Assembly: GCA_944391865.1 (NCBI GenBank)
Contig: CALXVD010000003.1
Span: 6,375-70,374, forward strand
Direction of reading: 5' to 3'
Origin: an uncultured Clostridia bacterium
Lineage (GTDB): Bacteria; Bacillota; Clostridia; TANB77; CAG-508
DNA: 64,000 bases
In this document: positions 1 to 62,661 of the stretch, piece by piece
Layout of the letters: every line of letters begins with the position of its first letter
Numbering within the stretch: position 1 is the first letter of the stretch
Notes under the pieces: model-generated
Databases searched by the model: none
What the model was told of the DNA's origin: nothing
The model's input: only the letters and a program-made list of their open reading frames with translations
Made by a program: the position numbers and the translations under genes

Positions 1-1216
1 AACGGACATATCTGACACACAACAGCAAAACGCAGTAGCTCTTATCACAGTATATACCCTTGACAGCCGTAACTCAGAAGACAATCAAGAGCATACACTA
101 TACTATTGCATTGAATGTAATCCATATACAAACTTCTACGGCACTTCTATTTATGATAAGACTACAAATCAAGATGCGACTTCTGAGTATAAGACCAAAA
201 TAACTTTGAAAGAAGAAAAACAAAGCACTCATAACATTCCAACTTTTAGTGTATTTGAACCAGACCCACAAGTAAGTATCATTGACCCAATAATCTCGCT
301 AGTATCAAATTATGAAGAAATAATGAACAACCTAAATAATTTATATCACTATAATGATGCAGATGCGAAGTTAAAGATTTCTGGATACCGACCAGAAAAC
401 CCACTAACAATACCTAATCCAGACTTTGACCCTGAACAACCAATCTCATCTTCCAACCCAGAGAAGATATTAAACCCTGCACGTGAATTAGAGGACCAAT
501 ACCTTATCGACTCAAAAACATTCTACGTGCAAGAAGGAGGAGACGTAGGCTGGCTACTAAAAGAAATACACGCAGAGGATGCGACGAAGTATTTGAAATA
601 TTATGTTGACAGCATCTTCCAGATTTCGGGAATACCAAATACCTCAGACGCAGCGTTCAACTCAGGAGACATGAATGCTAGTGCCATAGACAGAAAATTT
701 TATACAATGGCGCTAATGTTAGACGACGTAAGACAAGGGGTTACAACCCTAATAAAACATAGATGGGCCAACTTCTTCGCAAGAATAAACTTAGTCTCTC
801 CAACTCATTATAATGTAGACGACATAACTATTGAAATAGGTACAAATTTACCATCAATGACAGATGAGACGATAAATCAACAATTAGCACTAAACGGTAT
901 TCTATCACAAAAAACGCTATTATCAAATCTTGGTTATGATTACGCTACAGAGAAGAAGAACAAGGAAGAAGAAACAGAAATACCATACGCCACAGTTACA
1001 CCAGATACGAACTTCGTATCACCAAACGATGTGGATTCTTTATCTTCTGCTGCTACCGACACCACACCTTCACAAAAAACTTCGACTACATCAACCACTT
1101 CTTCACAGACTAATAATCAGATTGAAGCAAGGACACAAAATAGCACACAAACAGTAAAAGATAGAACTAATAATATTAAAAAAACCCAAACAAGAGAGGG
1201 TAGACCTAATAAATGA
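1..1216 (+). CDS. Portal protein (SPP1 gp6-like), 3' partial; the frame is open from the window start, so the ATG at 206 is not the true start
   Basis: The frame is open from nt 2 with no stop codon. The C-terminal region (YTMALMLDDVRQG..KHRWANFFARINL) resembles phage portal proteins. An acidic, S/T-rich tail follows. Confidence 0.7.
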   Translation, partial: TDISDTQQQNAVALITVYTLDSRNSEDNQEHTLYYCIECNPYTNFYGTSIYDKTTNQDATSEYKTKITLKEEKQSTHNIPTFSVFEPDPQVSIIDPIISLVSNYEEIMNNLNNLYHYNDADAKLKISGYRPENPLTIPNPDFDPEQPISSSNPEKILNPARELEDQYLIDSKTFYVQEGGDVGWLLKEIHAEDATKYLKYYVDSIFQISGIPNTSDAAFNSGDMNASAIDRKFYTMALMLDDVRQGVTTLIKHRWANFFARINLVSPTHYNVDDITIEIGTNLPSMTDETINQQLALNGILSQKTLLSNLGYDYATEKKNKEEETEIPYATVTPDTNFVSPNDVDSLSSAATDTTPSQKTSTTSTTSSQTNNQIEARTQNSTQTVKDRTNNIKKTQTREGRPNK

Positions 1217-2802: not shown

Positions 2803-2876
2803 TAAGAAAAAAGAAGAAGAAATCAAACAAGGAAATGGAGAACTCCAAAGAAATTTTGAAAAGGAGGAAAAAGAAA

Positions 2877-3959
2877 ATGGCTAAAAGGGGTATAGATATA
2901 AGTGCTCATCAAGGTAATATTGACCTAGAAGCACTAAAAAGTCAAATCGACTTCGTAATAATAAGAGTAGGATATGGTACAAAAGGTACTATAGACGCTA
3001 AATTTACTAGAAATGCTGATTTATGTCGCTCTTTAGGTATTCCAGTAGGATTTTATTGGTATTCATACGCGTTAGACATAGAAGGAGCTAAAAAAGAAGC
3101 TCAAGCTATGATAAATGCTATAGCACCATACAAAGACATAGTAAAATTTGGTGTATGGTTTGATATGGAAGACGCTGATGGATATAAAAAGAAAAATGGT
3201 ATGCCTTCAAATCAAACATTAAGACAAATGTGTGCTGCATTCTGTGAAGCTACAGAAAATGCAGGATATTATTCAGGAATATATGCTTCAGAAAGTTGGT
3301 TTAATAACCAATTAAAAGGAAGTGAAATAACTCCATATGATAAATGGATAGCTCAATGGCCTACAAGTGGAGGAAAACAAACTGGTCTAGATACTAGTGC
3401 TTCTAAAAGAAGCGACGTTCACTTATGGCAATTCACTTCACAAGGTAAATTTTCAGGATATTCAGGAAATCTTGATACAAACTATGCTTATTTAGATAAT
3501 TTCCCAAATCCAGGAAGTTCAACAGAACCTTCTACACCTACTCCTGAACCATCAACACCAGTTTCTACACAAAAATTTAATATTGGAGACAGAGTTGTGA
3601 TAAGTGGAAATCTATATACAAGCTCAAACGCTAAGTCACCAGCAGGTAGTGTATCTAAAACAACTACAAATATTACTAGATATGCGGCAGGAGCAGCTCA
3701 TCCATATAATACAACTGGAGATTTAGGTTGGATGAATGAGAGTGATATACAATTAGCTAGTAATGAAACACCTACTGCAATTGTGAAAGGATGTAAAGTT
3801 AAATTTACAGGTACAAAATCTTATTCTGGTATAAAATTAGCAAGTTGGACCACAAACAGTGTGTTTGACGTAATTGAAGTATCAGGAGATAGAGTAGTAA
3901 TAGGTAAAGGTACAGCAGTTACCGCAGCTGTTAATATGAAAGACTGTGTGAGAGTATAA
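2877..3959 (+). CDS. Endolysin: GH25 muramidase with C-terminal SH3b-like cell-wall-binding domain
   Basis: GIDISAHQG..IDF..FVIIRVGYG..DAKF and the DxE-containing GVWFDMEDADGYKK are GH25 signatures. The start is probably the ATG at 2877, 9 nt after AAGGAGG; the track start at 2835 lacks an RBS. A P/T-rich linker precedes a C-terminal beta domain. Confidence 0.8.
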   Translation: MAKRGIDISAHQGNIDLEALKSQIDFVIIRVGYGTKGTIDAKFTRNADLCRSLGIPVGFYWYSYALDIEGAKKEAQAMINAIAPYKDIVKFGVWFDMEDADGYKKKNGMPSNQTLRQMCAAFCEATENAGYYSGIYASESWFNNQLKGSEITPYDKWIAQWPTSGGKQTGLDTSASKRSDVHLWQFTSQGKFSGYSGNLDTNYAYLDNFPNPGSSTEPSTPTPEPSTPVSTQKFNIGDRVVISGNLYTSSNAKSPAGSVSKTTTNITRYAAGAAHPYNTTGDLGWMNESDIQLASNETPTAIVKGCKVKFTGTKSYSGIKLASWTTNSVFDVIEVSGDRVVIGKGTAVTAAVNMKDCVRV

Positions 3960-6355: not shown

Positions 6356-6775
6356 ATGGACCAAGCATATGAATTAAGTAAAGCACTACCAAATAAATGG
6401 TTAAATCCAGACGGTAGTATAACAGACAGTCAAGGAAATATTATTTCACCAGCTACAACAACTATGGCAGCAGTTTATAAGACTTCAAAATCTATAGTTA
6501 ATAAATTTATAGACGTAGACGGTGAAACAAAAACTTATGAACAAATATCTATGGATATTTTCGTACCAGTAGATAAATTACCTGAAACAGGTGAAAAAAA
6601 TAAAATTTATTTAGTGCCAGCTGAAAATGGTACATTTGATGAATATTATTGGATAAACGATAAATGGGAGCTACTAGGAAATGTATCTTTAGATTTATCT
6701 GATTATCCAACATTTGAGCAAATGAATGCAGCTATAAATGAAGCTATTTATGGAGCATTAGGAGGTGAGTATTAA
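6356..6775 (+). CDS. Hypothetical protein
   Basis: RBS aaggaggtaactATG. Confidence 0.3.
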   Translation: MDQAYELSKALPNKWLNPDGSITDSQGNIISPATTTMAAVYKTSKSIVNKFIDVDGETKTYEQISMDIFVPVDKLPETGEKNKIYLVPAENGTFDEYYWINDKWELLGNVSLDLSDYPTFEQMNAAINEAIYGALGGEY

Positions 6776-8337
6776 TGGCAGATACAAGTAATTTAACTAA
6801 TTATTTAACAGATGTGGCAGATGCAATTAGAGAAAAAAAAGGAACAGATGCGCAAATACCAGCTGCTAATTTTGATACAGAGATATTAAGTATATCGACA
6901 GGTTTAAATACTTGGGACGCTACGGCAACTGCAAATGATATTATTTCTGGTAAAACTGCATATGTTAAAGGTCAGAAAATAACAGGTGCTATTGCGGAAG
7001 AAACAGAAAATATAGGAACTAATATTATGAATTATACTTTATCAAAATTTGCAAATGGTGAAGTGTTTGGTATAAACAGTGATAATATAGTTTTATACAA
7101 TGATACTCAGAATAGGTTAACGATAGGACGTATAGCAGATGATTACACAGGAGTTAGTGTGATTAACGCCTTAACCATTACTGGTGCAACAATAGCTTGT
7201 ATATCTAATTTTTATCAAGTTTCTACTGAAACTGAAATTGCAGCTGTTTTATATAATACACCAGATGAAAACTTGAAATTAGCTACATTATCTAAAACGG
7301 GAGAGAGTTATACATTTACAGAAGTTTCTGATATAGAAAAAATCATAGTGGGGTCAACTCAATTTAATAACTGTAACGGATTAGGTGTATATTGTGATGT
7401 AGACAATATATATCTTTGTATCACTTATCCGATTTATAATGACAGACAGTTTATACCTAGTATGTATAAAATAACTATTTCTGATAGTTTAGAAAATAAA
7501 ATTTCGTATGAGTTATTAGCAGTATCTTCTGATAGGATATATTACGCTAATAGTAATAATAGTACTTTACCTGTAAATATTCAAATGGTAAAAAACAATT
7601 CTAGAATTTCTATGGGGTTCTGGTCATCAGAATTTCATTATATATCAGGTGGTTATACAATAGGAGGAACTTTTGTAGCAGACCTTGTTAGTTTTGCAGA
7701 TTACTTCTATTTTGCTCATGGAAATAATTTAGAATTGTGTACAATAACACAGATAGATGATGTTTGGACATTAAGTATGGGGAGTAAACAAATTCCTATC
7801 TCCATATCAAAAAATCCTAATTATTATTATATGTATAAATGTAATAATTTTTATATTGTAATAGCTTATGTAAGTGGAGATGCTTGTTATTTATATTTTG
7901 TAGATAATAATACATTAGATTTATTAAAAACAGAAGTTGTAGAACCTGTACTTCTTAAGAGGTATCCAATAATTCTTAGTGATAATGTTATACTTAGAAA
8001 TGATAATGTTAATTTAATTTTATATAATTATGATACTTCTGCTACTAGAAGATTAAGTTTAAATGATGGTGAATATACATATTACAATACATATGACAGC
8101 GATGTGCTAACAAATAATATATTAATCGACAAAATAGCTTATAATGCTGATGGAAAAGTTGTTGGTACTATGCCAAATAATGGAGAATTAACTTATAATT
8201 CTTCTACCGAAGTACAAACTATTCCAGAAGGATATACATCAGGAGGAACAATTGCAGCCGCACCATTAAGTGATACAGAATATGAAGAATGTTTAGATTT
8301 ATCAGAACAAATATTAGGGGAAAATGCTTCATTGTAA
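6775..8337 (+). CDS. Fibre-like protein with an N-terminal ATANDI..KTAYV.G.KITG module (head or tail fibre candidate)
   Basis: The N-terminal motif is shared with the ORF at 9407. The rest is N/Y/T-rich and beta-rich. Confidence 0.4.
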   Translation: MADTSNLTNYLTDVADAIREKKGTDAQIPAANFDTEILSISTGLNTWDATATANDIISGKTAYVKGQKITGAIAEETENIGTNIMNYTLSKFANGEVFGINSDNIVLYNDTQNRLTIGRIADDYTGVSVINALTITGATIACISNFYQVSTETEIAAVLYNTPDENLKLATLSKTGESYTFTEVSDIEKIIVGSTQFNNCNGLGVYCDVDNIYLCITYPIYNDRQFIPSMYKITISDSLENKISYELLAVSSDRIYYANSNNSTLPVNIQMVKNNSRISMGFWSSEFHYISGGYTIGGTFVADLVSFADYFYFAHGNNLELCTITQIDDVWTLSMGSKQIPISISKNPNYYYMYKCNNFYIVIAYVSGDACYLYFVDNNTLDLLKTEVVEPVLLKRYPIILSDNVILRNDNVNLILYNYDTSATRRLSLNDGEYTYYNTYDSDVLTNNILIDKIAYNADGKVVGTMPNNGELTYNSSTEVQTIPEGYTSGGTIAAAPLSDTEYEECLDLSEQILGENASL

Positions 8338-8363: not shown

Positions 8364-8594
8364 ATGTTAAAAAAATTTAAAAATTTGGATAATATAGATA
8401 AAGCATTAATAATAATCACAATTATTATTATGGTCCTTTTAATAGGAAATTTAATTATAAGTATAAAGCATATAAGTCAATTTAATTCTATAAGAAACTC
8501 TGGTAATGACAGATGGTTTCAAGTGGAAGAAAGAATAGTTACGTATGAACATAAAGTAGACCAACTAGAAGAACAGATTAAAAATCTAAAATAA
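8364..8594 (+). CDS. Small single-TM protein with a coiled coil
   Basis: 76 aa with a TM segment IIITIIIMVLLIGNLII. Confidence 0.3.
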   Translation: MLKKFKNLDNIDKALIIITIIIMVLLIGNLIISIKHISQFNSIRNSGNDRWFQVEERIVTYEHKVDQLEEQIKNLK

Positions 8595-8607
8595 AGGAGG
8601 AGCCAGT

Positions 8608-9390
8608 GTGGAGTGGGCAGAATTAGCTAAAATATATGTTGAAATAGGTATCCTTGGTCTATGTGGTATTCTCACAGTAATGATAGCTTATCTTGGTTTT
8701 AAAAGGTCAAAAGAAGATAATAAAAATAAAGATAAAAGATTAGAAAATAATCAAGATAAGCTAGACAATAGATTTGACGCTATGTTAAAAATGATACAAG
8801 AGCAAAATCGTGCTTTTCAAGAGCAGCAGTTGAAAAATAACGAAATGCTTATAAATAATATAGTGCAAGGTGTAACAAATCACGTTCCTTCTTCAGAAGA
8901 AAATACAAAATTAACTAGAATAACAGAAGAAATAGATAAAACATTACAACAATTATTGATATACACTGACGCAGATAGAGTTGACTTAGTCCAATATCAC
9001 AATGGTGGTAAAGGAGTAAATAAACAAAGTTTTCTGAAAATGTCTATGACAAATGAACAAGTAAAAATTGGAGTAAAACCTTTTATGTCTGAGTTTAAAG
9101 ACCAGTTTAGGTCTGTAATAGCTTATATAACAAGGTCTTTGAATGAAAAAGGTTTTTGCTATATCAATGACGCAGAAGAAGTAAAAGAGAAGGACCCTGG
9201 TACATATGAATTTTTAATAAATAGAGGTATTGAATCAAAATATTGTATGGCAATACATAATACACAAGACGGTTCTGTTATCGCTTTTGTGTGTGTAGAA
9301 TACATTAAAAAAGAAACTGCTAGACCAGATTTAGTAAATAAAGTATTTAAAGAAAAGCAAAATGTTTTTGAAACATTATTAAATTTATAA
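8608..9390 (+). CDS. Membrane-anchored protein (GTG start)
   Basis: GTG start after aaaggaggagcca. One N-terminal TM helix and a cytoplasmic domain. Function unknown. Confidence 0.3.
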   Translation: MEWAELAKIYVEIGILGLCGILTVMIAYLGFKRSKEDNKNKDKRLENNQDKLDNRFDAMLKMIQEQNRAFQEQQLKNNEMLINNIVQGVTNHVPSSEENTKLTRITEEIDKTLQQLLIYTDADRVDLVQYHNGGKGVNKQSFLKMSMTNEQVKIGVKPFMSEFKDQFRSVIAYITRSLNEKGFCYINDAEEVKEKDPGTYEFLINRGIESKYCMAIHNTQDGSVIAFVCVEYIKKETARPDLVNKVFKEKQNVFETLLNL

Positions 9391-9406: not shown

Positions 9407-9892
9407 ATGTCAGATTTAAAAACTAACTTGCAAGAAATATTACAAGAAAAGCAAGACAAGATTATCCCAGAGAATATCAAAAAAGATGTGCAAATATTAG
9501 GTGTAACTGGTACTATGGAAGGTGGTGTAGATACATCAGACGCAAATGCTACAGCAAATGATATAGTTAAAGATAAAACTGCGTATGTAAATGGAGAAAA
9601 AATAACAGGTACATTTGCGCCCGAAGACGAACTACAAATACCATCTATTGTTGACCGACAAGAAAATATAACATTTGGAGACGATGGTTTTGGAAATCAA
9701 TCTGTAATATTTACCGGTGCTAGTACTAGATGGTATACACCAAAATATATCAACAATGTAATACCCATAGTTAGCGTTGACCAAAGCATGGTTGCAGCTG
9801 CTATAGGTCTTACTGCTGATAAAATTAAAGCTGGAGAAACAATTTTAGGAGTAACTGGTACATATACTGGAGAAAATGATACAAGTTTATAA
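9407..9892 (+). CDS. Paralogous fibre-module protein (ATANDIV..KTAYVNGEKITG)
   Basis: Shares an N-terminal ~45-aa module with the ORF at 6775..8337. Confidence 0.4.
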   Translation: MSDLKTNLQEILQEKQDKIIPENIKKDVQILGVTGTMEGGVDTSDANATANDIVKDKTAYVNGEKITGTFAPEDELQIPSIVDRQENITFGDDGFGNQSVIFTGASTRWYTPKYINNVIPIVSVDQSMVAAAIGLTADKIKAGETILGVTGTYTGENDTSL

Positions 9893-9899
9893 AAAATAG

Positions 9900-9928
9900 T
9901 CGACATTTTGATATTTATGCTGTATAAT
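9900..9928 (+). promoter_or_regulatory. Sigma-A-like promoter
   Basis: TCGACA-N17-TATAAT upstream of 9955. Confidence 0.5.
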
Positions 9929-9954: not shown

Positions 9955-10506
9955 ATGTTAGAACTATTATTAGGACAAATCCCAGAAGCAATTTATTTTG
10001 CACTGTTTATGATATTTACAAAAGAGTTAAAAACAAAAAGAGTGTTATATATTGTACTTATGGTAGTTGAATATTTGTTATTGAAACATTTTATTAAATT
10101 TAATATGTGGTTTCAAATAGCTTATACGATTTTTCAATTTATAATATTGAAAATTTTATACAAGGAAAAAGCACAAGTAACAGATATATTTACATTTGCA
10201 ATAGCTAGTGCTGTATTGATACTGATAAGTTTTGTTTCATATTCTATTATATGGGCAACTTTGAATAATTATTATGCCGCTGTTATACTTTGTAGGATTT
10301 TATTATTTGTATTTTTAGTTTTGTACCACAAAAAACTTTATAAAATTCAAAAATTATATAAGTTATTGTGGAATAGAACTGATAAAAGACCTGTTAATAT
10401 GAAATCAACAACTTTCAGAGCAGTTAATTTGGTGATTTTTAATATTATGTTTTATATTATAAATTTAGGAATGGCATTTATGCTTATTCAAAACGGAGGT
10501 GTGTAA
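9955..10506 (+). CDS. Polytopic membrane protein (~5-6 TM)
   Basis: 183 aa, very hydrophobic. Function unknown. Confidence 0.4.
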   Translation: MLELLLGQIPEAIYFALFMIFTKELKTKRVLYIVLMVVEYLLLKHFIKFNMWFQIAYTIFQFIILKILYKEKAQVTDIFTFAIASAVLILISFVSYSIIWATLNNYYAAVILCRILLFVFLVLYHKKLYKIQKLYKLLWNRTDKRPVNMKSTTFRAVNLVIFNIMFYIINLGMAFMLIQNGGV

Positions 10507-10507
10507 T

Positions 10508-10561
10508 ATGGGAGGATGGGACAGTTGGTTCTGGTTTTACAATCCTGAAGATGGAGAGTAA
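10508..10561 (+). CDS. 17-aa Trp/Phe-rich micro-ORF (MGGWDSWFWFYNPEDGE)
   Basis: ATG lies 8 nt after GGAGGTG. It sits between two membrane-protein genes and is absent from the ORF track because it is under 60 aa. Confidence 0.3.
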   Translation: MGGWDSWFWFYNPEDGE

Positions 10562-10606
10562 TCCAAACAAATTAAAAAAGTAATAGGAAGAGAAGTGGTG
10601 GTTTAG

Positions 10607-11194
10607 ATGAGTGATAAAACGAAAAACCTCCTTAGTAGTTTAATATTCAATGTTGCAGAGACAATATTAATATTTCTAATGGGTAGACTTCTTAGTCTAC
10701 CCGTAAATTATATAATTATAATAATGTTAACATTTATGATTAGTAGAGGTTGTTTTGGAAAAGTATTACATTTTAAAACATGGTATCGTTGCTTAGTTTG
10801 GAGTTTACTGATACTATTAAGTTTATTTGTGTTATTAAAAGTAGACTTAGTTGTTTCTATAATGTTTGCTATTTTTAGTGCGTTTATAATGACTGGTAGG
10901 TCTAATATCTGTGATATGTATTTATGGACAGGAAAAGTCAGTAAATATGATGCACTAAAGAATTTTGTATCAATAAGTCCTAACCACCCAATACTTCTTG
11001 AACATGAAGAATATTGGAGAAAGAATTATCCAATGAGATATGAAATTTTTCAATTATATTTTAGAGAAAATCAAACTTATGAGTATATCGCAAAACTAAA
11101 AGGTTTTGAAGATAATACTGTTACGAAACGAGAATGTGCTACAATTTATTCTATTTTAGAACGTCCTCTAGGACTTCCACCAGTAGGTAAGTAA
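10607..11194 (+). CDS. Membrane protein (4 TM) with a soluble C-terminal domain
   Basis: 195 aa. Hydrophobic N-terminal half and a ~90-aa C-terminal domain. Confidence 0.4.
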   Translation: MSDKTKNLLSSLIFNVAETILIFLMGRLLSLPVNYIIIIMLTFMISRGCFGKVLHFKTWYRCLVWSLLILLSLFVLLKVDLVVSIMFAIFSAFIMTGRSNICDMYLWTGKVSKYDALKNFVSISPNHPILLEHEEYWRKNYPMRYEIFQLYFRENQTYEYIAKLKGFEDNTVTKRECATIYSILERPLGLPPVGK

Positions 11195-11219
11195 GATATT
11201 TTGAATATCTTATTTTTTT
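11193..11219 (+). terminator. Rho-independent terminator
   Basis: aagatatt-ttg-aatatctt followed by a T7 run. Confidence 0.6.
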
Positions 11220-11233
11220 GTGTTCTAGGAACC

Positions 11234-11264
11234 CTGACAATCATTCTCTCTTTTGAGATATTAT
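11234..11264 (+). promoter_or_regulatory. Putative promoter
   Basis: CTGACA-N18-ATATTA upstream of 11288. Confidence 0.35.
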
Positions 11265-11287: not shown

Positions 11288-11695
11288 ATGTTTAATTCAT
11301 ATAATCAAAATCCATATTTTAGTCCTTATTTTACTCCACAACAACCACAACAAACAACAGTGCCTAGTATGAGATTTAATAGTTTACAAGGAAAGTCAAT
11401 AGATAATTTAGAAGTAGTAAAAGCTATGGACATACCATTAGATGGTAGTATTAGTTATTTTCCACTTGTTGACGGAAGTGCAATAGTAACAAAACAACTT
11501 CAACAAGATGGCACAAGCAAAATTACAATTTATAAGCCTATAGAAGCTGATGAAGCTGCAACAACTAAATATGCTACTATTGAAGACATTGAAAATCATA
11601 TAAAAAATATTAAAATGCCTGACATGAAACCATTACAAGATGAAATCAAAACATTGAAAAAACAAATTAGAATTTTGTTAGACAAGGAGGATTAG
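11288..11695 (+). CDS. Hypothetical protein
   Basis: RBS aaaggagagatgaaaaATG. Confidence 0.3.
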   Translation: MFNSYNQNPYFSPYFTPQQPQQTTVPSMRFNSLQGKSIDNLEVVKAMDIPLDGSISYFPLVDGSAIVTKQLQQDGTSKITIYKPIEADEAATTKYATIEDIENHIKNIKMPDMKPLQDEIKTLKKQIRILLDKED

Positions 11696-12071: not shown

Positions 12072-12791
12072 AAACTGAAAATCTGCCAAGGTTAAATCGA
12101 GGTATTAAGCGGGAAGGCTGAAATGCTAATCCGAACCGAAGGCTATAGATACTATAGTCAGGGGCAACGCATAGGTAGTGAAAAGATATAATCTACCCAC
12201 GAGACCTCGACAATTGTTTTTGAATTTGTTATAATAATGTCGGAGGGGATAATAATGAAAAAAGGAAGTTATTATACTTTAGAAGATTATGTTATAACAA
12301 AAAATGGAGAAGTTATAAATAAACATAACGGTCGTATATTAAAACCACAGTTAAATGGAAAAGGGTATTTAAGAGTTTCTATTGGTAAACAATTGATGTT
12401 TGTTCATAGATTAGTTGCTCAAAAATATGTACCTAATCCAGAAAATAAATTACAAGTCAACCATAAAGATGGAAATAAATTAAATAATTATTATAAAAAT
12501 CTTGAATGGGTAACAAATCAAGAAAATAGAAATCACGCTGTGGAAAATGATTTACATCTATGTGGAGCAAGATGTTCTTGGTCGAAATTAACTTCTTCAC
12601 AAGTTTTAGAAATTTTAAATGATGATGTACATACTTTTACTGAATTAGGTAAAATGTATAATGTGAACCGAAATACAATTAGAGATATTAAAATGGGTAA
12701 AACTTGGAAACAATTGAAAAGATATGCTGACCTATAACGAATAAGTAAGTTATAGAAATAGAGGATAAAAAGCCTTTATGATAACAAAATG
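12072..12791 (+). mobile_element. Group I intron (IA-like) carrying an HNH homing-endonuclease ORF
   Basis: A GC-enriched structured block at 12072..12236 contains P/Q/S-like elements (aagcgggaagg, aatccgaacc, gatactatagtcagg). IGS gccaag at 12085..12090 pairs with the exon-1 end cttggt (P1, U-G at the junction). The adjacent atct pairs with ggat at 12792 (P10). Omega-G at 12791. Confidence 0.55.
12237..12737 (+). CDS. HNH homing endonuclease (HNH_3 type) inside the intron
   Basis: KGYLRVSIGK...VHRLVAQKYVPNPENKLQVNHKDGNKLNNYYKNLEWVTNQENRNHA is a classic phage HNH motif. RBS gtcggaggggataataATG. Confidence 0.8.
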   Translation: MSEGIIMKKGSYYTLEDYVITKNGEVINKHNGRILKPQLNGKGYLRVSIGKQLMFVHRLVAQKYVPNPENKLQVNHKDGNKLNNYYKNLEWVTNQENRNHAVENDLHLCGARCSWSKLTSSQVLEILNDDVHTFTELGKMYNVNRNTIRDIKMGKTWKQLKRYADL

Positions 12792-13537
12792 GGATAATTA
12801 TTTTCTTAATCTTTGCTCTTGGTGGTTTCAGAGGTAATGGTTTTGGCTGGGGAAACCAAGGTGGAGGAGCTGCTGATAATTATGTATTAGCTAGTGATTT
12901 CGCTACATTACAAAGACAACTTGATAGTGGTTTTGACAGAAATGGTCAAGCTATTAATCAAGTAAATAATGGACTTTGTGATGGTTTCTACGCTATGAAT
13001 ACTGGTATGTTAAATGGTTTCAGTGGTATTCAAAATACACTTTGTCAAGGATTTGCTGGTGTAAATAATGCTATTACACAAAACGGTTATGAAACAAGAC
13101 TTGGTGTTCAAAATCTTAGCTCACAATTAGCAAACTGCTGCTGCGACGTAAAAACTCAAATAGCAGACTGCTGCTGCACAACTCAAAGAGGAATTGACGG
13201 TATAAACTATAATATGGCTATGAACACAAACAATATTCAACAAACATTATGTAATAACACTAGAGATATAATTGAAAGTAATAATGCTAACTACAGAGCA
13301 TTACACGATGAAATAGTTGCTAATAGAATTGAGGATAAAAATGCTCAAATTCAAGCACAACAAAATGAAATCAACGCTTTAAGATTAGCTGCTAGTCAAG
13401 AAAGACAAAATACTTATTTAATCGACCAATTAAAACCTTGTCCAATACCTGCATATATTACTTGCAACCCATATCAATCATATGGATTTACATATGCAAA
13501 CAATGGTTGTGGATGCAACACTGGATGTGGATGTTAA
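12792..13537 (+). CDS. Exon 2 of the split gene: hydrophobic segment, Gly-rich region, coiled coil, Cys-rich C-terminus (CCC x2, GCGCNTGCGC)
   Basis: The frame is open from 12785 with no start codon before 12995, consistent with an exon. The GWGNxGG motif recurs on both sides of the hydrophobic segment. Confidence 0.45.
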
Positions 13538-13653: not shown

Positions 13654-14112
13654 ATGATACAATCATATATAAATACAATTACACCATTAGATAGTAATAG
13701 TTCTTCTGTGGTTTTCCAAAAAGATTGTATTAGAACTAATAGTTGTAATGGTTGCAGAAGTTGGTTGTGCCACAACGAAGGTTCTGCCAACTATGAAATA
13801 GTTAATGGTGGAATATATAAAATTAGTTTTAATGCTACAATTTCTAGTGCTACCACAGGTGTAGTTGCTTTTGCTTTATTTAACAATGGTGAGCAAATAC
13901 CAGGTACATTAATGGCCGAAACAATTGACGCTGCTGGAGATTATGCTGATATTGGAATAAATAAAAAGGTTAGAGTATGTTGTAATGGGACATCTACTAT
14001 ATCAGTAAGAGCTGTGCCAACAATACCTACTGCAACTGCTCCAACTACACCAATCACAACACAAGTTCCAATCATAGGAAGTGCCAATTTAATAATCGAC
14101 AGAAGATGTTAG
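13654..14112 (+). CDS. Possible C1q/BclA-C-terminal-like beta-sandwich protein
   Basis: ANYEIVNGGIYKISFNATIS..VAFALFNNGEQIPGT..VRVCCNG resembles TNF/C1q-like fibre tips. This is a weak call. Confidence 0.3.
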   Translation: MIQSYINTITPLDSNSSSVVFQKDCIRTNSCNGCRSWLCHNEGSANYEIVNGGIYKISFNATISSATTGVVAFALFNNGEQIPGTLMAETIDAAGDYADIGINKKVRVCCNGTSTISVRAVPTIPTATAPTTPITTQVPIIGSANLIIDRRC

Positions 14113-15451: not shown

Positions 15452-16360
15452 ATGGCAGCAGTAAATTACGCTGAAAGCTACGAAAGAGCCTTAGCTCAAG
15501 CATATCCAAATGTGCTTAACTTTGGTGAATTATACAATGTAGCTAATAACCAAGTTTACAAATTCGTAGACTCAAAAACAATTCACATTCCATCAATTTC
15601 TGTAACTGGTAGAAAAAACGTAAACAGAGATGCTATAGATGGAACATTCTCAAGAAACGTAGATAACAGTTTTGAAACAAAAACTTTAACATTCTACAGA
15701 GAGTGGTCAACAAGTATTGACCCAGCAGACGTTATGGATACTAATATGATATTAACTATCCAAAACGCAACACAAGTATTCAATGAAACACAAAAATTCC
15801 CAGAAAAAGACGCTTATACAATAAGCAAAATTTATGCAGACTGGGTAGCTGAAGGAAAAACAGCAGATACAACTGTATTAACAGTTGACAATATTTTAGC
15901 CGTATTTGATAAAATGATGGAAGGAATGGATGAAGCATTAGTACCTTCTCAAGGAAGAATATTATATGTAACTCCAGCTGTTAAAACATTATTAAAATCA
16001 GCTTCAAATATTGGTTTATCTAAATCTGTTGAACACCAAGCTAATATCAACAGAGTTGTTGATAGACTTGATGAAGTTAGATTAATAACAGTACCTTCAT
16101 TCTTAATGAAGACTGCTTATGACTTTACAACAGGATTTGAACCATCTTCAAGTGCTAAACAAGTTAACTTGTTCTTAGTACACCCAAGTGCTATCTTAAC
16201 ACCAAATAAATACGCGTTTGTTGGTATGGAAGCTCCAGCAGCTGGTACAAAAGGTGACTATATCTATTATGAAAAAGAATATGCTGACGTATTCATTTTA
16301 AATAATAGAACAGGTGCTATCGCATTTAACATAACAGACGACGCTGACGCTAGTCTTTAA
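15452..16360 (+). CDS. Major capsid protein
   Basis: Very strong RBS (aaaggaggaaacaattATG). 302 aa. It sits in the head module upstream of connector and tail genes and has MCP-like composition. Confidence 0.65.
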   Translation: MAAVNYAESYERALAQAYPNVLNFGELYNVANNQVYKFVDSKTIHIPSISVTGRKNVNRDAIDGTFSRNVDNSFETKTLTFYREWSTSIDPADVMDTNMILTIQNATQVFNETQKFPEKDAYTISKIYADWVAEGKTADTTVLTVDNILAVFDKMMEGMDEALVPSQGRILYVTPAVKTLLKSASNIGLSKSVEHQANINRVVDRLDEVRLITVPSFLMKTAYDFTTGFEPSSSAKQVNLFLVHPSAILTPNKYAFVGMEAPAAGTKGDYIYYEKEYADVFILNNRTGAIAFNITDDADASL

Positions 16361-34833: not shown

Positions 34834-34920
34834 TGGCGCCGTGGTGAGGTGTCGAACCCCCACGCTTTCACGTGTATCTGCTTTCAAGGCAGAGTGTGAC
34901 TAGCCGGTCACAACCACGGC
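34834..34920 (-). tRNA. tRNA-Ser (anticodon TGA), CCA encoded
   Basis: Acceptor GCCGTGG/CCACGGC, anticodon arm TCTGC-CTTGAAA-GCAGA, long variable arm CACG..CGTG, T-loop TTCGACA, 3' GCCA. Confidence 0.7.
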
Positions 34921-34931
34921 ATATTTTCATT

Positions 34932-35018
34932 TGGTGGGTGAGGATGGATTCGAACCACCGTAGCCACAAGGACGCCTGATTTACAGTCAGGTGCAATTGA
35001 CCACTCTGCCACTCACCC
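34932..35018 (-). tRNA. tRNA-Tyr (anticodon GTA), CCA encoded
   Basis: Acceptor GGGTGAG/CTCACCC, anticodon arm CCTGA-CTGTAAA-TCAGG, long variable arm, T-loop TTCGAAT, 3' ACCA. Confidence 0.75.
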
Positions 35019-51241: not shown

Positions 51242-52354
51242 TTATATTTCTATTTTCTTACGTACAATCATTTCTCTAAATTGTTGTAATATCCATGTTT
51301 CCATTTGATAAATCCTTTGTTTTGAGAGGTCAAAATATTTTCCTATTTCAATATATGTATATTCACGGTTTTCGGGATTAAGTCCGTAACGCATTTCTAG
51401 AACTTTTTGATAACGTCGATATGATTCTTTGGTGATTGGAACATACTCTTCTAATTTTTTAAATAAAAATTTGACTATTTCACGTTTGTCTGATATTACA
51501 AGTGTTTCTGGATTAACACTTCCATCTTCATATTTCACATGAACATTATCCGCAGGATAAAGTTCTTCTTCTATGAATTTATCACTCATACGATAACGAC
51601 CCACGTCATTACATGAATATTGTAATTTTGAAATATAAGGTACTATATAATTATTCATTCTACTTAAAAAATTAGACACATGAAATCTATAAGAAGTAGA
51701 TGGTAATCTATTATAATCTACTATTAATGCTTTTAAATTAGTATCTTTGTCCTTATTTTCCCAACACCATGCCCACAACTCTTGTTTCCAATCTTCTTCA
51801 TAGTAATCAATTTTTAAATTGAATTCCTTAGAAACAGTTGGAGTAAATATCGCTATTAATTCGTCAATTATAATAGCTGCTCGTTCATTTAATGATAGTT
51901 CATAACTATGCTTTCTTTCAAAACCAGATTCTGTGTATTTCGGTTTTGTGATTTCTTTTCTTCCTTGCGCTTTTCCAGATTCACGAGATTGAAATTCTTG
52001 ATGTTTTATAGTAATCCATTTTCCTAATTCCTCAGTAGTTTTTTCTCCAGAAGCAACTTTTTTTGTCCATTCAAAAAACTCATTATTGAAATTAATAAGA
52101 AAATCATGATTAATTGTACCACGACGTTCTCTATTGAATACTATTTGACGAATTAAGTCATAAGTATGATGCCATGGTTGTTCTGAAAGTTTTATAGGGT
52201 ATTTCATGCCTTGCTTTTTAATTTTTTTAGGTTTAATCTCTAATTCGTATTCTTCCATTAATTCTAATATATCTTCATCATGAATGTGTGATTTTAGTCT
52301 TTCCCATATATCTTTATATTTATTCATAGACATTCTCTTTTCTATATACACCAA
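51242..52354 (-). CDS. Putative sigma-70-family-like transcription factor (region-4-like HTH at the C-terminus)
   Basis: YTYIEIGKYFDLSKQRIYQMETWILQQFREM resembles sigma region 4. Confidence 0.35.
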   Translation of the reverse strand: MVYIEKRMSMNKYKDIWERLKSHIHDEDILELMEEYELEIKPKKIKKQGMKYPIKLSEQPWHHTYDLIRQIVFNRERRGTINHDFLINFNNEFFEWTKKVASGEKTTEELGKWITIKHQEFQSRESGKAQGRKEITKPKYTESGFERKHSYELSLNERAAIIIDELIAIFTPTVSKEFNLKIDYYEEDWKQELWAWCWENKDKDTNLKALIVDYNRLPSTSYRFHVSNFLSRMNNYIVPYISKLQYSCNDVGRYRMSDKFIEEELYPADNVHVKYEDGSVNPETLVISDKREIVKFLFKKLEEYVPITKESYRRYQKVLEMRYGLNPENREYTYIEIGKYFDLSKQRIYQMETWILQQFREMIVRKKIEI

Positions 52355-60158: not shown

Positions 60159-60700
60159 GGCATATGGCTAAAAAGAAAAAAGAAGAACCTATTGACGCAG
60201 AAGATATTATAGGTACTTTCTTAAAAGGGGATAGATACGATGACGATGAAAGATACAGACAAAGTGTTGACGCCATTTATAGAAAATTAAAACCTATATG
60301 GCTTAACGAGTGTAAAGACGCAGTATGGTTATTAAAAGACGAATACGTAAGAGACGTTGCTTCAATATTATACTTAGACGACCAAATGGGTGGCAATTTA
60401 GACCCTACAAGTCTTAGTGAAGAAAGACAGAATTTATTAGGCTGGAAGCAAGTGCAAAGTTCAATTGAGAGGTATAGGGCACTTGATTATTCTTTAGTTG
60501 ATGACGAGAGTATCAAAGCCATATTATCCAGTATTATTAAGAACAAGCAAGCAAGGGACGCTGACAGGCTTAAAGCGATTGAAATGTATACTGGTATGTT
60601 TAGCACTGATAATATTGAAGGTATTACGTTTATTAATGATATAAGTAAACCAAAAGAATTTAAAAAAGAAGAAGATGAGGAGGATGAAGATGACGACTGA
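60155..60700 (+). CDS. Hypothetical protein with an acidic tail
   Basis: 181 aa. Confidence 0.3.
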   Translation: MRHMAKKKKEEPIDAEDIIGTFLKGDRYDDDERYRQSVDAIYRKLKPIWLNECKDAVWLLKDEYVRDVASILYLDDQMGGNLDPTSLSEERQNLLGWKQVQSSIERYRALDYSLVDDESIKAILSSIIKNKQARDADRLKAIEMYTGMFSTDNIEGITFINDISKPKEFKKEEDEEDEDDD

Positions 60701-61211
60701 GATTTGGAAAGATATTAAAGGATATGAAGGACTTTATCAAATTAGTAACTTAGGTAGAGTGAAATCAGCAATCAATAGAAGTAATCATAAACACGAGTTA
60801 ATTTTAAAACCAATAAAAGACCGCGACGGATACTATCGTGTTCATTTATATAAAAAATCAAAGTTAACTACATATTTTATACATAAATTGGTTGCCGAAA
60901 CATTTATACCTAATCCTGATGATTTGCCAATAGTAAACCATAAAGATGAAGATAAAACTAATAATTGCATGAATAATTTAGAATGGTGTACCGTTAGATA
61001 TAATAATAGTTATGGTAATCGACTAATAAATATATCAAAAACTTCTGGAAAACCCGTTCAATGTGTAGAAACTGGTTTAATTTATCATTCTATAAAAGAA
61101 GCTAGTAGGCAAACAGGAATTGATTATAGTTCTATTGCAAAAAATTGTAGAGGTAAAAGGAGTGTAGCAGGTAGCTATCATTGGAAATATGCAAAAAAGG
61201 AGGTGATGTAA
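60675..61211 (+). CDS. HNH homing endonuclease (NUMOD4-like N-terminus)
   Basis: EIWKDIKGYEGLYQISNLGRVKS..IHKLVAETFIPNPDDLPIVNHKDEDKTNNCMNNLEW. It is a paralog of the gene at 32483. Confidence 0.8.
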   Translation: MRRMKMTTEIWKDIKGYEGLYQISNLGRVKSAINRSNHKHELILKPIKDRDGYYRVHLYKKSKLTTYFIHKLVAETFIPNPDDLPIVNHKDEDKTNNCMNNLEWCTVRYNNSYGNRLINISKTSGKPVQCVETGLIYHSIKEASRQTGIDYSSIAKNCRGKRSVAGSYHWKYAKKEVM

Positions 61212-61212
61212 C

Positions 61213-62661
61213 ATGAAACGAGCTTTAAGTGAAATAATTCTTCCTAACTATTGGGACTTACTTGAAGATGGTATAGGTGAACAGTTAGAACAGAGTAGGA
61301 AGATGTTTTTAAGAGGAGGTCGTTTCTCTTGAATTAGGAAAAAGTTATTGGGCTGCGCATCACATTATTATTTCATTACTCTCATTAGCTTGCACTCATG
61401 TTGAACGGTGAACCTTGGGCTTGCTGTCTGGCACTAAGAAAATATAGTAACACACTTAAAACATCTGTATACGCAGAGATTGCTAATGCTATAATTAATT
61501 TAGGCGTAGAAAATAAATTTCAAATGCTTACGAACCCAATGGAAATAAGACTAAAAGGCACTAAGTCTGTAATTAAATTCGCTAACTTGAACACGGCTGA
61601 GGATTACGGAAAAGTTAAGAGTATTAAATGGCCTGGTGGCTACTGTAGATTAATATGGTTTGAAGAAGCGGACCAATTTCAATCTAAGCACGACGTTGAC
61701 CAAGTGTTATTAAGTTTGTATAGAGGTGGAGACATATTTGAAACTATATTCACGTATAATACGCCGTTTAGTCCATCACACTGGTTAAACGTAGGCTGGA
61801 ATAATGAACGAGAAATGCTTACGGATGCTGATAGTGGTGAAGTCAGAAAGAAAAGAGAAAAAGTATATTTCAAACACGTTAATTTATATGATATACCAAG
61901 AGGTATCGTCCCTGAACAGGTTTATGATATGGCTGAAGCAATGCGTGAAGAAAACTTGCAAGAGTGGAAACACGTGATTATGCGGAGAAGTGGGTGACCC
62001 TGCTACTATGGTGTTCCCAAATATTAAAGCTGTACGACCTAAGGACGTAGATTTAGAACACGACTGGTTATTAGGTTCACCAAGTAACTGGCGCTGGCTT
62101 GTTGGTATGGACTATGGTTATCGTCCTGACCCAACTGTATGTGTAGTATGTGGCTATAATAAAATCAGAAAAATCTTATGGATAGTAGATGAAACAAGAG
62201 GTATCGGCTGGAGTGAAGAAGGTATCTATATGAACGTAATGGAAATGCTTAAACGTGGTGGCGCTAGTGCTAAAGCACTATCTGGTGGAGGCGGCGGTGT
62301 TGTGAACGCAAGTAGTTTAATTAATTCCGAAATTGATAACAGAATTATAGACGGCTTACGAAGTAAGGGTTTGAACATATACCCAGTTAAAAAAGTTTCT
62401 GGTTCAAGAGATATTTCATATCAGTTTTTGACTGGAGGTTATGGTGATTTACGTGAAATCTGGATTGATAGTGAACAGTGTCCTGGAGTCTGGGCAGAAT
62501 TTATCGGAGCTGAATTCTTAAGACGTGACATTGGAGGCAAAGAAATCATTGTTCAAGAGTGGCCTACTGTTAATGACCACGGAATAGACGCTACAAGATA
62601 CGCAACACTTGACTTATGGCTAGGCAGAGCTATTACTGGGAGCAAAAGAACATTATTGTAA
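61213..62661 (+). CDS. Terminase large subunit, encoded in four consecutive +1-shifted frame segments
   Basis: The segments are 61213..61332, 61313..61411, 61389..61997 and 61978..62661. Strong RBS aaggaggtga at 61213. Walker-A-like ..LRGGR/SLELGKS, Walker B RLIWFEEADQF, nuclease domain VGMDYGY..DHGIDATRYA. Confidence 0.6.

Follow-up and report, generated by a model that had tools for sequence, protein, structure and literature searches.

A three-gene phage cassette combining a putative leaderless AgrD-like micro-peptide with a predicted AgrB-like, helix-turn-helix-fused membrane protein

We analysed a 64,000-nucleotide (nt) stretch of DNA from an uncultured Clostridia bacterium (GenBank assembly GCA_944391865.1, contig CALXVD010000003.1, positions 6,375 to 70,374). 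This stretch, which we call the window, is part of a phage genome of ~78 kb, ~14 kb of which lies outside it. The window carries a cassette of three genes: P1, which encodes a membrane protein with six transmembrane (TM) helices; a micro-open reading frame (micro-ORF) of 17 codons; and P2, which encodes a second membrane protein with four TM helices and a soluble C-terminal domain (Table 1). On balance, we favour the view that the cassette is an Agr-derived phage peptide module, made up of a leaderless AgrD-like peptide, a minimal AgrB and a fused helix-turn-helix (HTH) output. In bacteria, AgrB is the enzyme behind the cyclic peptides of quorum sensing. It is probably a stripped-down peptide-signalling module of a kind previously undescribed in viruses. 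What the cassette does chemically, how P1 takes part and what purpose the unit serves are matters that we only infer.

The transcription unit and its micro-ORF

The P1 stop codon (TAA, 10504-10506) is followed after one base by the ATG of the micro-ORF at 10508, and the GGAGG of the micro-ORF's Shine-Dalgarno (SD) site lies 8 nt from this ATG. A sequence-only reading of the same DNA had described the six-TM protein, the micro-ORF 1 nt after its stop, the GGAGGTG site with its 8-nt spacer and the four-TM protein with its soluble domain. All were found where that reading had placed them, both in the sequence and in AlphaFold2 models of P1 and P2 built on alignments of database homologues.

The same reading had credited the cassette with its own promoter and terminator, and both recur among related loci. 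The site at 9900 is the top-scoring promoter-like site of the region in a promoter scan (11/12), and a sigma-A promoter matching at 10-12 of 12 positions stands 25-35 nt 5' of P1 in ~20 of 55 distinct related loci, several of them with a perfect 12/12. For the remainder of these 55 loci, the preceding gene directly adjoins P1. At the other end of the cassette, RNAfold predicts a hairpin with a T-run, and an equivalent structure lies directly 3' of P2 in 49 of 54 distinct loci. A consensus terminator scanner called no terminator after P2, because it demands at least three G-C pairs and the stem is A/T-rich. The recurrence of promoter and terminator suggests that the host polymerase transcribes the cassette autonomously, and P1, the micro-ORF and P2 are predicted to form one transcription unit with its own sigma-A-type promoter and intrinsic terminator. 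No Rfam family and no tRNA was found near the cassette.

Related loci were drawn from IMG/VR (32 loci with a P2 homologue at 45-82% identity) and from metagenome and metagenome-assembled genome (MAG) contigs. The order P1, micro-ORF, P2 is kept in all 32 IMG/VR loci, the micro-ORF is present in 90 of the 90 related loci that have enough upstream sequence, and an SD-like site precedes it in 59 of 60 distinct contexts. Conservation and a ribosome-binding site in relatives had been proposed as a check for a spurious micro-ORF, and the result was the opposite of spuriousness. P1 is invariably upstream of the micro-ORF in the loci examined. For distant P1 relatives (~30% identity) from other phages, 40-56 kb in size, 14 of 15 loci show a micro-ORF and then an AgrB-HTH protein downstream of P1, and the peptides include MVNSWFFFCSEDGE, MPPIISWLGFCDQVDGE, MPFGSYLFFFDAKEGE and MISFFGFYDEDGE; the alignment of very divergent P1 sequences was too variable for a locus search, and a subset was used instead.

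The encoded peptides are 14-19 amino acids (aa) long, with 1-6 residues ahead of a conserved core, and follow the motif (M)-x0-5-[W]-x-S-[WF]-x-[WFL]-[ILFV]-[FY]-[DNS]-x-x-[DE]-G-E-stop. A shorter form, S-[WF]-x-[WF]-x-[FY]-[DNS]-x-x-[DE]-G-E-stop, serves as a search motif. After the serine come four to five hydrophobic or aromatic residues, which are variable, and then the most conserved part, an acidic tail of only 5-7 aa ([FY]-[DNS]-x-x-[DE]-G-E). The agr systems of staphylococci, clostridia and listeriae share this layout, in that a small peptide with a Cys or Ser, a short, variable hydrophobic core and a conserved acidic C-terminal tail adjoins the enzyme. One homologous locus (L116) encodes a longer peptide of 39 aa, MKKLLVTLAASAAALAALTTTVAANNPISWLICDSRTGE, in which a 25-aa hydrophobic leader, ending in a V-A-A signal-peptidase-like site, precedes the Ser, the hydrophobic core and the acidic G-E tail, as in the layout of AgrD.

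Across 27 distinct peptide core sequences, the ratio of non-synonymous to synonymous changes (pN/pS) was 0.34, and third codon positions of the micro-ORF show about twice the variability of first and second positions. The invariant Ser is encoded by AGC, AGT, TCA and TCT, which belong to both the AGY and the TCN families, and a residue that survives a switch between these families can be maintained only by selection on the amino acid. These patterns indicate that the micro-ORF is a genuine gene under purifying selection. Automatic gene callers annotate P1 and P2 and leave a 55-nt gap uncalled (for example at 9946-10000 of L122, and in other database contigs). The peptide family is therefore absent from protein databases, and surveys of RiPPs (peptides made by the ribosome and modified after translation) and of quorum-sensing peptides have overlooked it.

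The close spacing of the micro-ORF and P2 in many relatives raises a different explanation, namely that the micro-ORF is a cis-acting regulatory leader that sets the level of P2, either because the two are coupled in translation or because the nascent peptide arrests the ribosome in response to Trp or some other ligand, and that the free peptide has no function. In 39 of 60 contexts only 2-6 nt separate the micro-ORF stop from the start of P2, in some cases the two overlap, and codons for Trp and Phe abound in the micro-ORF. Arrest peptides such as TnaC and SecM are likewise conserved at the amino-acid level, which counts in favour of a leader. However, the gap in the window is 45 nt, the extreme of the range, and the core varies freely where neither the Ser nor the acidic G-E end changes, a pattern that fits a substrate or recognition sequence. 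The 25-aa secretion-type leader of the L116 peptide would also be purposeless for coupling, and the neighbouring gene encodes a homologue of a peptide-processing enzyme, as described below. We consider a purely cis-acting role quite unlikely.

The two membrane proteins

In the AlphaFold2 model of P2, residues 3-103 form four TM helices and residues 113-190 a helical domain, joined by a linker of poor definition. Its membrane half resembles AgrB. The Pfam AgrB model (PF04647) matches 58 of 60 P2 family members (E ≤ 0.01, best 5.8e-7), the L111 homologue reaches 29.5 bits, above the Pfam gathering threshold (GA), and many database homologues of P2 are tagged with PF04647, the NCBI name of one of them (P0316) being "accessory gene regulator B family protein". 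Three residues, R47, H55 and C62, never vary, either in an alignment of 24 sequences or in one of 60, and stand in register with R...GGFH......C of AgrB from the Clostridioides phage phiCDHM1, as well as with AgrB of the Brevibacillus phage Davies. The H55-x6-C62 spacing is identical to that of the catalytic dyad His77/Cys84 of Staphylococcus aureus AgrB, whose active site faces the cytoplasm. By the positive-inside rule, the P2 N-terminus, the R47-K57 loop and the C-terminal domain would be cytoplasmic as well. A His-x6-Cys dyad, an upstream Arg and a cytoplasm-facing active site are features that P2, as predicted, shares with staphylococcal, clostridial and listerial AgrB. On these sequence grounds, the N-terminal half of P2 is predicted to be half of an AgrB-type membrane cysteine peptidase, with H55 and C62 as its catalytic dyad and R47 as the conserved upstream Arg.

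We also observed that in L023, L024, L028, L030 and L032 P2 either ends soon after the AgrB half (105-130 aa) or is missing its end, with similarity continuing in another frame. Frameshifts, faults of assembly or natural variants in which enzyme and HTH are separate could account for these shortened forms.

P2 residues 113-190 are modelled as a confident soluble helical domain, with a predicted local distance difference test score (pLDDT) of ~86-94. At least two sequence types of this domain occur, type A (...ERPLGLPP..., as in the window) and type B (...RIYCGI, the majority), and both align column for column with the domain of the L116 homologue. It is the L116 domain that gives the clearest assignment, matching Pfam Sigma70_r4 (PF04545) at 28.7 bits (GA 24.1) and the extracytoplasmic function (ECF) sigma model TIGR02937 at 2.5e-7; the L119, L120 and L108 domains give weak sigma matches. 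For the window domain, the best Foldseek matches in the PDB are sigma-28, ECF sigma region 4 and the KorA HTH, all non-significant at E > 1, and a profile of the C-terminal domain only gives weak matches to SigF, WhiG and FliA (E 0.5-2.6). The window domain is also in register with the sigma-4.2 HTH of Davies sigma-24. We read the C-terminal domain of P2 as a predicted sigma-70 region-4-like HTH, on evidence that is indirect for the window protein.

No sigma region 2 is present in P2: only the C-terminal ~80 residues are soluble, and the TIGR02937 match is limited to positions 108-165 of 165. P2 is therefore not a sigma factor and is predicted to be a membrane-anchored HTH protein. Membrane-tethered one-component transcription regulators such as ToxR and CadC are similar in that a signal-handling polypeptide anchors a cytoplasmic DNA-binding domain. 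Unlike them, P2 carries its predicted HTH, of the sigma-70 region-4 type, at the C-terminus, and what it has in the membrane is homologous to an enzyme and is not a periplasmic sensor.

Two further comparisons of the C-terminal domain were made. As a possible copy of the phage's own sigma-like protein (51242-52354), it was rejected, with no detectable relation between the two. Its first half (residues ~113-165, 10943-11100) bears a recurrent weak likeness to the C-terminal domain of archaeal TBP-interacting protein, seen as Pfam TBPIP_C in 17 of 60 members and as PDB 2czr with the domain profile (E = 2.8e-4). This likeness is unexplained, and we made no use of it.

P1 is modelled with six long helices and one short amphipathic helix (pLDDT 82.7, predicted template modelling score 0.80). 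Its conserved motifs are G-Q-[IL]-P-E-A in TM1, L-Y-K-E-K-A-Q-x-T-D in loop 3 and W-N-R...K-S-T-T-F-R-x-x-N in loop 5, and relatives at 20-30% identity keep G-x-x-P-E (TM1), L-Y-x-K-x-x-I-x-D and W-N-R-(5-8)-[IV]-K-S-[IL]-T-x-R-N. Most of these motifs would be cytoplasmic by the positive-inside rule. An exhaustive profile search of 1.84 billion representatives yielded ~200 clusters at 50% identity, all of them standalone proteins of ~175-190 aa, and no fusions to other domains. Neither 64 close nor 30 very divergent members matched Pfam, and no relatives of known function appeared in NCBIfam, PHROGs, PADLOC, the PDB by sequence, or Foldseek searches of the PDB and BFVD. Profile comparisons showed no similarity to P2, phiCDHM1 AgrC or Davies gp44 and gp45. 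By these searches, P1 represents a new family. The sequence-only reading had suggested that an AgrB, CPBP or Abi fold might be sought in the membrane proteins; profile and family searches detected none in P1, nor any similarity to AgrC sensor domains. That reading had also found no assignable motif in any of the three proteins, which no longer holds for P2, with its AgrB-like N-terminal half and sigma-70 region-4-like C-terminal domain; P1 is without such relatives.

Modular exchange, downstream element and phage context

A comparison of two related loci suggests how the cassette is inherited. Between a point ~380 nt upstream of P1 and P2 codon 107, the DNA of L004 matches that of L022 at 93-100% identity, and downstream of this at only ~50%, placing the recombination breakpoint where the AgrB half meets the HTH domain. 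A co-inherited module is therefore formed by P1, the peptide and the AgrB half, and the HTH goes with the phage backbone to the right. Divergence of the peptide core was correlated with that of P1 (partial Mantel r 0.20, p 0.0015) and of the AgrB half (r 0.155, p 0.01), both correlations being weak and confounded by phylogeny, and was not correlated with that of the HTH domain (r -0.10).

The DNA just past the terminator differs with the type of HTH. The motif [AG]GAACC[CT]T, of which AGGAACCCT is the window's instance, occurs 32-37 nt after the P2 stop in 10 of 10 distinct type-A loci. By contrast, it occurs in 0 of 33 type-B loci, which carry AGTCnGAnTGACA or other motifs at the same place. 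The element is conserved and the surrounding intergenic DNA is not, which indicates that it is functional. We hypothesize that it is the target of the P2 HTH. As a repeated phage promoter, the motif was rejected, with three matches in the window against 1.4 expected. Separately, a conserved inverted-repeat element (…cgcctattattatc…gaaataggca…) was seen ~90-140 nt after the P2 stop in L004, L005, L034, L045, L022, L026 and L036; the window does not have it.

The gene after the cassette (11288-11695, + strand) encodes a Q/N/Y-rich protein with the core SLQGKS[IV]D..[ED]VVKAMDIPLDGSISYFPL and a coiled-coil end. Its homologues (L107-L121) stay beside the triad even in very distant phages with different upstream genes. 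The cassette may act on or together with the product of this gene; alternatively, the gene may simply mark a site where insertions are conserved.

Table 1. Positions of the cassette features and of other phage features in the window
Feature	Position	Strand	Description
Sigma-A-type promoter TCGACA-17-TATAAT	9900..9928	+	11/12 match; upstream of P1
P1	9955..10506	+	183-aa six-TM membrane protein; new family by the searches made
Shine-Dalgarno site GGAGGTG	10495..10501	+	Within the P1 3' end; read from sequence
Micro-ORF, 17 aa, MGGWDSWFWFYNPEDGE	10508..10561	+	Putative AgrD-like precursor with no leader; Ser6 invariant, then the hydrophobic core WFWF(Y) and an acidic tail with a G-E end
P2, whole	10607..11194	+	195 aa; four TM helices and soluble helical C-terminal domain
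P2 N-terminal half, codons 1-107	10607..10927	+	Predicted four-TM AgrB-like domain; R47, H55, C62
P2 C-terminal cytoplasmic domain, codons ~113-195	10943..11194	+	Predicted sigma-70 region-4-like HTH, sequence type A
Intrinsic terminator	11189..11219	+	12-bp A/T-rich stem (11189-11215), 3-nt loop, T-run; overlaps P2 stop codon; RNAfold
AGGAACCCT element	11227-11235	+	Instance of [AG]GAACC[CT]T; whole region with promoter-like site 11227..11262; candidate target of P2 HTH
Promoter-like CTGACA-17-GATATT	within 11227..11262	+	Abuts AGGAACCCT; faces gene 11288-11695
Type-B downstream motif			AGTCAGAATGACA
Portal	206-1216		Window phage gene
Endolysin	2835-3959		Window phage; scaffold gene also present
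Fibre-like proteins	6775-8337 and 9407-9892	+	Probably fibre or receptor-binding modules; phrog_38337/13589, function unknown
Small membrane proteins	8364-9390		Precede cassette
Major head protein	15452-16360		
tRNA-Ser(UGA) and tRNA-Tyr(GUA), adjacent	34834-35018	-	
Sigma-like protein, 369 aa	51242-52354	-	C-terminus Sigma70_r4 24.9 bits (GA 24.1); PHROG "RNA polymerase sigma factor" match

Besides its structural genes, the window phage encodes its own DNA polymerase, primase, helicase, RNA ligase and terminase. A scan of the larger window ORFs revealed no integrase, and the phage is thus probably virulent. Deposited phage genomes contain no relative of the window phage DNA, P1 or P2, including by tblastn. 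The metagenomes are richer, with ~940 P2 clusters and ~880 P1 clusters at 90% identity, and many homologue clusters lie on 76-79-kb contigs from the human gut, the rumen and other animal guts. A further figure for P2 at this identity is ~1,300 clusters.

The sequence-only reading had offered two further options, a toxin with an immunity partner and a superinfection-exclusion system, and neither gained positive support. The first would make the Trp-rich peptide a membrane-active toxin or lysis modulator, acting with or without processing on membranes or the holin so as to adjust lysis or kill competitors, with P1 as its immunity protein or target. The cassette does sit directly 3' of holin or endolysin genes in many phages, and in the window it follows the small membrane proteins; the peptide is very hydrophobic and aromatic, and P1 has no known function. 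However, P1 and P2 match no known holin, toxin or defence family, and a toxin leaves the invariant acidic tail, the AgrB dyad and the HTH fusion unexplained. A place after the lysis genes is moreover the usual site for accessory genes, as it is for agr in phiCDHM1. We regard a toxin or lysis modulator as improbable.

Under the second option, the two membrane proteins would block DNA entry by other phages as an exclusion or defence system, and the micro-ORF would be incidental. Autonomous membrane-protein units in phage genomes are a common pattern for exclusion genes, and the cassette is such a unit. We nonetheless judge this very unlikely. PADLOC gave no match for P1, P2 or their neighbours (E ≤ 0.1), the micro-ORF is far from incidental given its universal presence and purifying selection, and a catalytic dyad and an HTH would be unexpected in an exclusion protein. 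The window phage is also apparently virulent, so there would be no lysogen for the system to protect.

Several other genes of the window deserve mention. The two fibre-like proteins that flank the small membrane proteins share the repeat D-[AT]-[NT]-A-T-A-N-D-I-x-x-x-K-T-A-Y-V-x-G-x-K-I-T-G. Between the cassette and the head gene, 12995-13537 (+) encodes a Cys-rich protein of 180 aa with CCC clusters (CCCDVKTQIADCCCTTQ) and the C-terminus GCGCNTGCGC (phrog_16490, function unknown), and the next ORF, 13654-14112 (+), has Cys pairs too; the two products may be unusual disulfide-rich virion components. The terminase large subunit region (60675-61211, 61398-61997 and 61990-62661, +) contains two adjacent overlapping terminase ORFs, of which only the first matches Terminase_3, with an HNH/NUMOD4 homing-type endonuclease directly upstream. 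Another HNH endonuclease is encoded a short way downstream of the cassette (12237-12737, +).

A proposed mechanism and its relation to known systems

If the cassette is Agr-derived, the 17-aa peptide would be the substrate of the AgrB half of P2 at the cytoplasmic face of the membrane. C62 would attack the bond ahead of the acidic tail, after F10 or Y11, as in AgrB/AgrD, freeing the tail (Y)NPEDGE. The hydroxyl of Ser6 would then resolve the acyl-enzyme into a small hydrophobic lactone with the ring SWFWF or SWFWFY and the N-terminal tail (M)GGWD. Cyclisation would perhaps run through the Ser, and a ring of Ser plus five residues before the polar tail is favoured by alignment in most loci, with Ser plus four in L116. 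A second protease would not be needed because there is almost no leader. P1 might export or receive the peptide, which is a guess, its conserved basic motifs being predicted to face the cytoplasm. The output would be the HTH fused to the enzyme, in place of AgrC/AgrA, and it may act on the type-matched AGGAACCCT/-35 element downstream, linking the amount of peptide to neighbouring phage genes.

Cyclisation through Ser has precedents. The autoinducing peptide (AIP) of S. intermedius is a Ser lactone, and so is the Enterococcus autoinducer GBAP, made by FsrB/FsrD. AgrB-family enzymes are thus able to cyclise via the Ser hydroxyl, as the invariant Ser of the cassette peptides would require. These systems differ from the cassette in their full-length AgrD/FsrD precursors and two-component readout.

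Several observations weigh against an Agr-derived module. The AgrB match of the window P2 itself (PF04647, 19.3 bits, E = 8e-4) is below the GA of 23 and joins residues 10-95 to model positions 27-111 of 185. P2 also lacks the six-TM, ~190-aa AgrB domain: it has four of the six TM helices, the last two being absent, with the C-terminal third replaced by the soluble domain that forms the HTH fusion. The window's C-terminal domain has no significant sigma-4 match by itself. AgrD is 40-50 aa long, with a 24-25-aa amphipathic leader, an internal Cys or Ser and a charged 14-15-aa tail, whereas the cassette peptides are 14-19 aa long, lack this leader (only L116 has one) and end in a tail of 5-7 aa. 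The N-terminal amphipathic helix and the 14-15-aa tail of AgrD are reported to be essential for processing by AgrB, and S. aureus AgrB does not process Ser-containing AgrD. The AgrD model TIGR04223 matched neither the 39-aa L116 peptide nor a 22-aa extended form (the phiCDHM1 AgrD control scored 1.7e-11), and the long-leader peptide did not extend beyond the single locus L116.

The genomic evidence has weak points as well. The Mantel correlations are slight and confounded, and promoter-like sites overall are no more frequent than chance in the AT-rich DNA of the window. Physical linkage could by itself produce the match between downstream motif and HTH type, since all of the backbone downstream is different beyond the breakpoint. 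With no AgrD-model match and the leader form at a single locus, the peptide is AgrD-like in layout, its main family having the internal Cys/Ser and short hydrophobic stretch of AgrD, and not a demonstrable member of the AgrD family.

The idea of an Agr- or peptide-signalling-like processing and sensing module, raised in the sequence-only reading, fared differently in its two parts. Processing is supported by the AgrB-like half with H55 and C62, which lies in P2 and not in the six-TM P1. Sensing is not: scans of the cassette, of its neighbours and of the larger window ORFs detected no histidine kinase or response regulator (AgrC or LytTR AgrA), and P1 is unlike the AgrC sensor. The cassette could be a complete, self-contained circuit of a new type, in which the leaderless precursor is cyclised, P1 exports or receives the product, and the HTH reads the signal state and controls the adjacent type-matched promoter and the downstream genes. 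Infected cells would then sense infection density without a two-component system or an RRNPP receptor. In such a circuit, a signal module (P1, peptide and AgrB half) and an output module (HTH and operator) would recombine independently, giving specificity groups as in staphylococcal agr. We see the complete circuit as possible but doubtful.

The lack of a receptor kinase or response regulator in the cassette could also be explained by host manipulation, with an AIP-like cyclic peptide that inhibits or activates an Agr receptor kinase belonging to the host or to competing bacteria, and with P1 needed solely to export the peptide or protect the producer. It is well known that AgrC is inhibited by non-cognate AIPs, published phage agr loci have been read in this way, and the unit is moron-like with a host-type promoter. 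However, this would leave unexplained both the fusion of the enzyme to an HTH that is exchanged with the phage backbone and the universal retention of a dedicated six-TM partner. MAG bins also give conflicting hosts. We hold host manipulation to be unlikely, if somewhat less so than the leader and toxin explanations above.

Returning to an Agr-derived module, its closest parallels are found in other phages. The arrangement agrC-agrB-agrD of Clostridioides phage phiCDHM1 (Hargreaves 2014, PMC3901668) is likewise an Agr-type module in a Firmicutes phage beside lysis genes, and its AgrD has a Ser, in ...TTSVWYINQPKMP, close to the window's SWFWFYNPEDGE and similar to the 39-aa L116 peptide as well. 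It differs in its full-size AgrB, its 37-aa AgrD recognized by the AgrD model, its histidine kinase AgrC and its temperate lifestyle. The Brevibacillus phages Davies, Emery and Abouo carry an AgrB, a 39-aa peptide and two membrane proteins, a kinase-less arrangement like that of the cassette. In Davies, however, the 172-aa AgrB has no HTH fusion, the peptide is of normal length with a leader, gp44 and gp45 are unlike P1, and the locus lies in the lysogeny module next to the integrase. Compared with agr in general, the cassette has the order peptide then enzyme, no AgrC/AgrA, and an additional six-TM protein of an apparently new family. None of the phiCDHM1, Brevibacillus or bacterial agr loci has a truncated AgrB-HTH, a ~15-aa precursor or a P1-type partner. 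A search of open-access papers and bioRxiv found no AgrB-HTH or AgrB-sigma fusion, leaderless AgrD or such phage AIP cluster beyond phiCDHM1, the Brevibacillus phages and bacterial AIP surveys.

Phages are known to communicate through peptides by another route. In the arbitrium system (AimP/AimR/AimX), a secreted propeptide with a signal sequence is matured by host proteases, imported by Opp and bound by a cytoplasmic tetratricopeptide repeat receptor. It pairs a small phage peptide with a phage DNA-binding regulator, and the logic would be similar if the communication circuit proposed above is right. The components themselves differ, since none of those of arbitrium are present in the cassette, and the window phage shows no lysogeny genes among the larger ORFs scanned.

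If our interpretation is true, the cassette would be the smallest Agr-type system known, with AgrB chemistry acting on a substrate of ~15 residues that has neither the leader nor the long tail thought to be essential. It would bear on how AgrB recognizes AgrD and how the AIP leaves the cell, both open questions in the field. The AgrB-HTH fusion would link peptide processing to transcription in one polypeptide, and the peptide motif between two membrane genes offers a simple way to find this overlooked family. What makes the cassette interesting is its minimal substrate, its enzyme-regulator fusion, its exchange by modules and how abundant the family is among phages of the gut and rumen. It would represent, beside arbitrium, a second and mechanistically different family of phage peptide systems in abundant uncultured phages of the gut and rumen.

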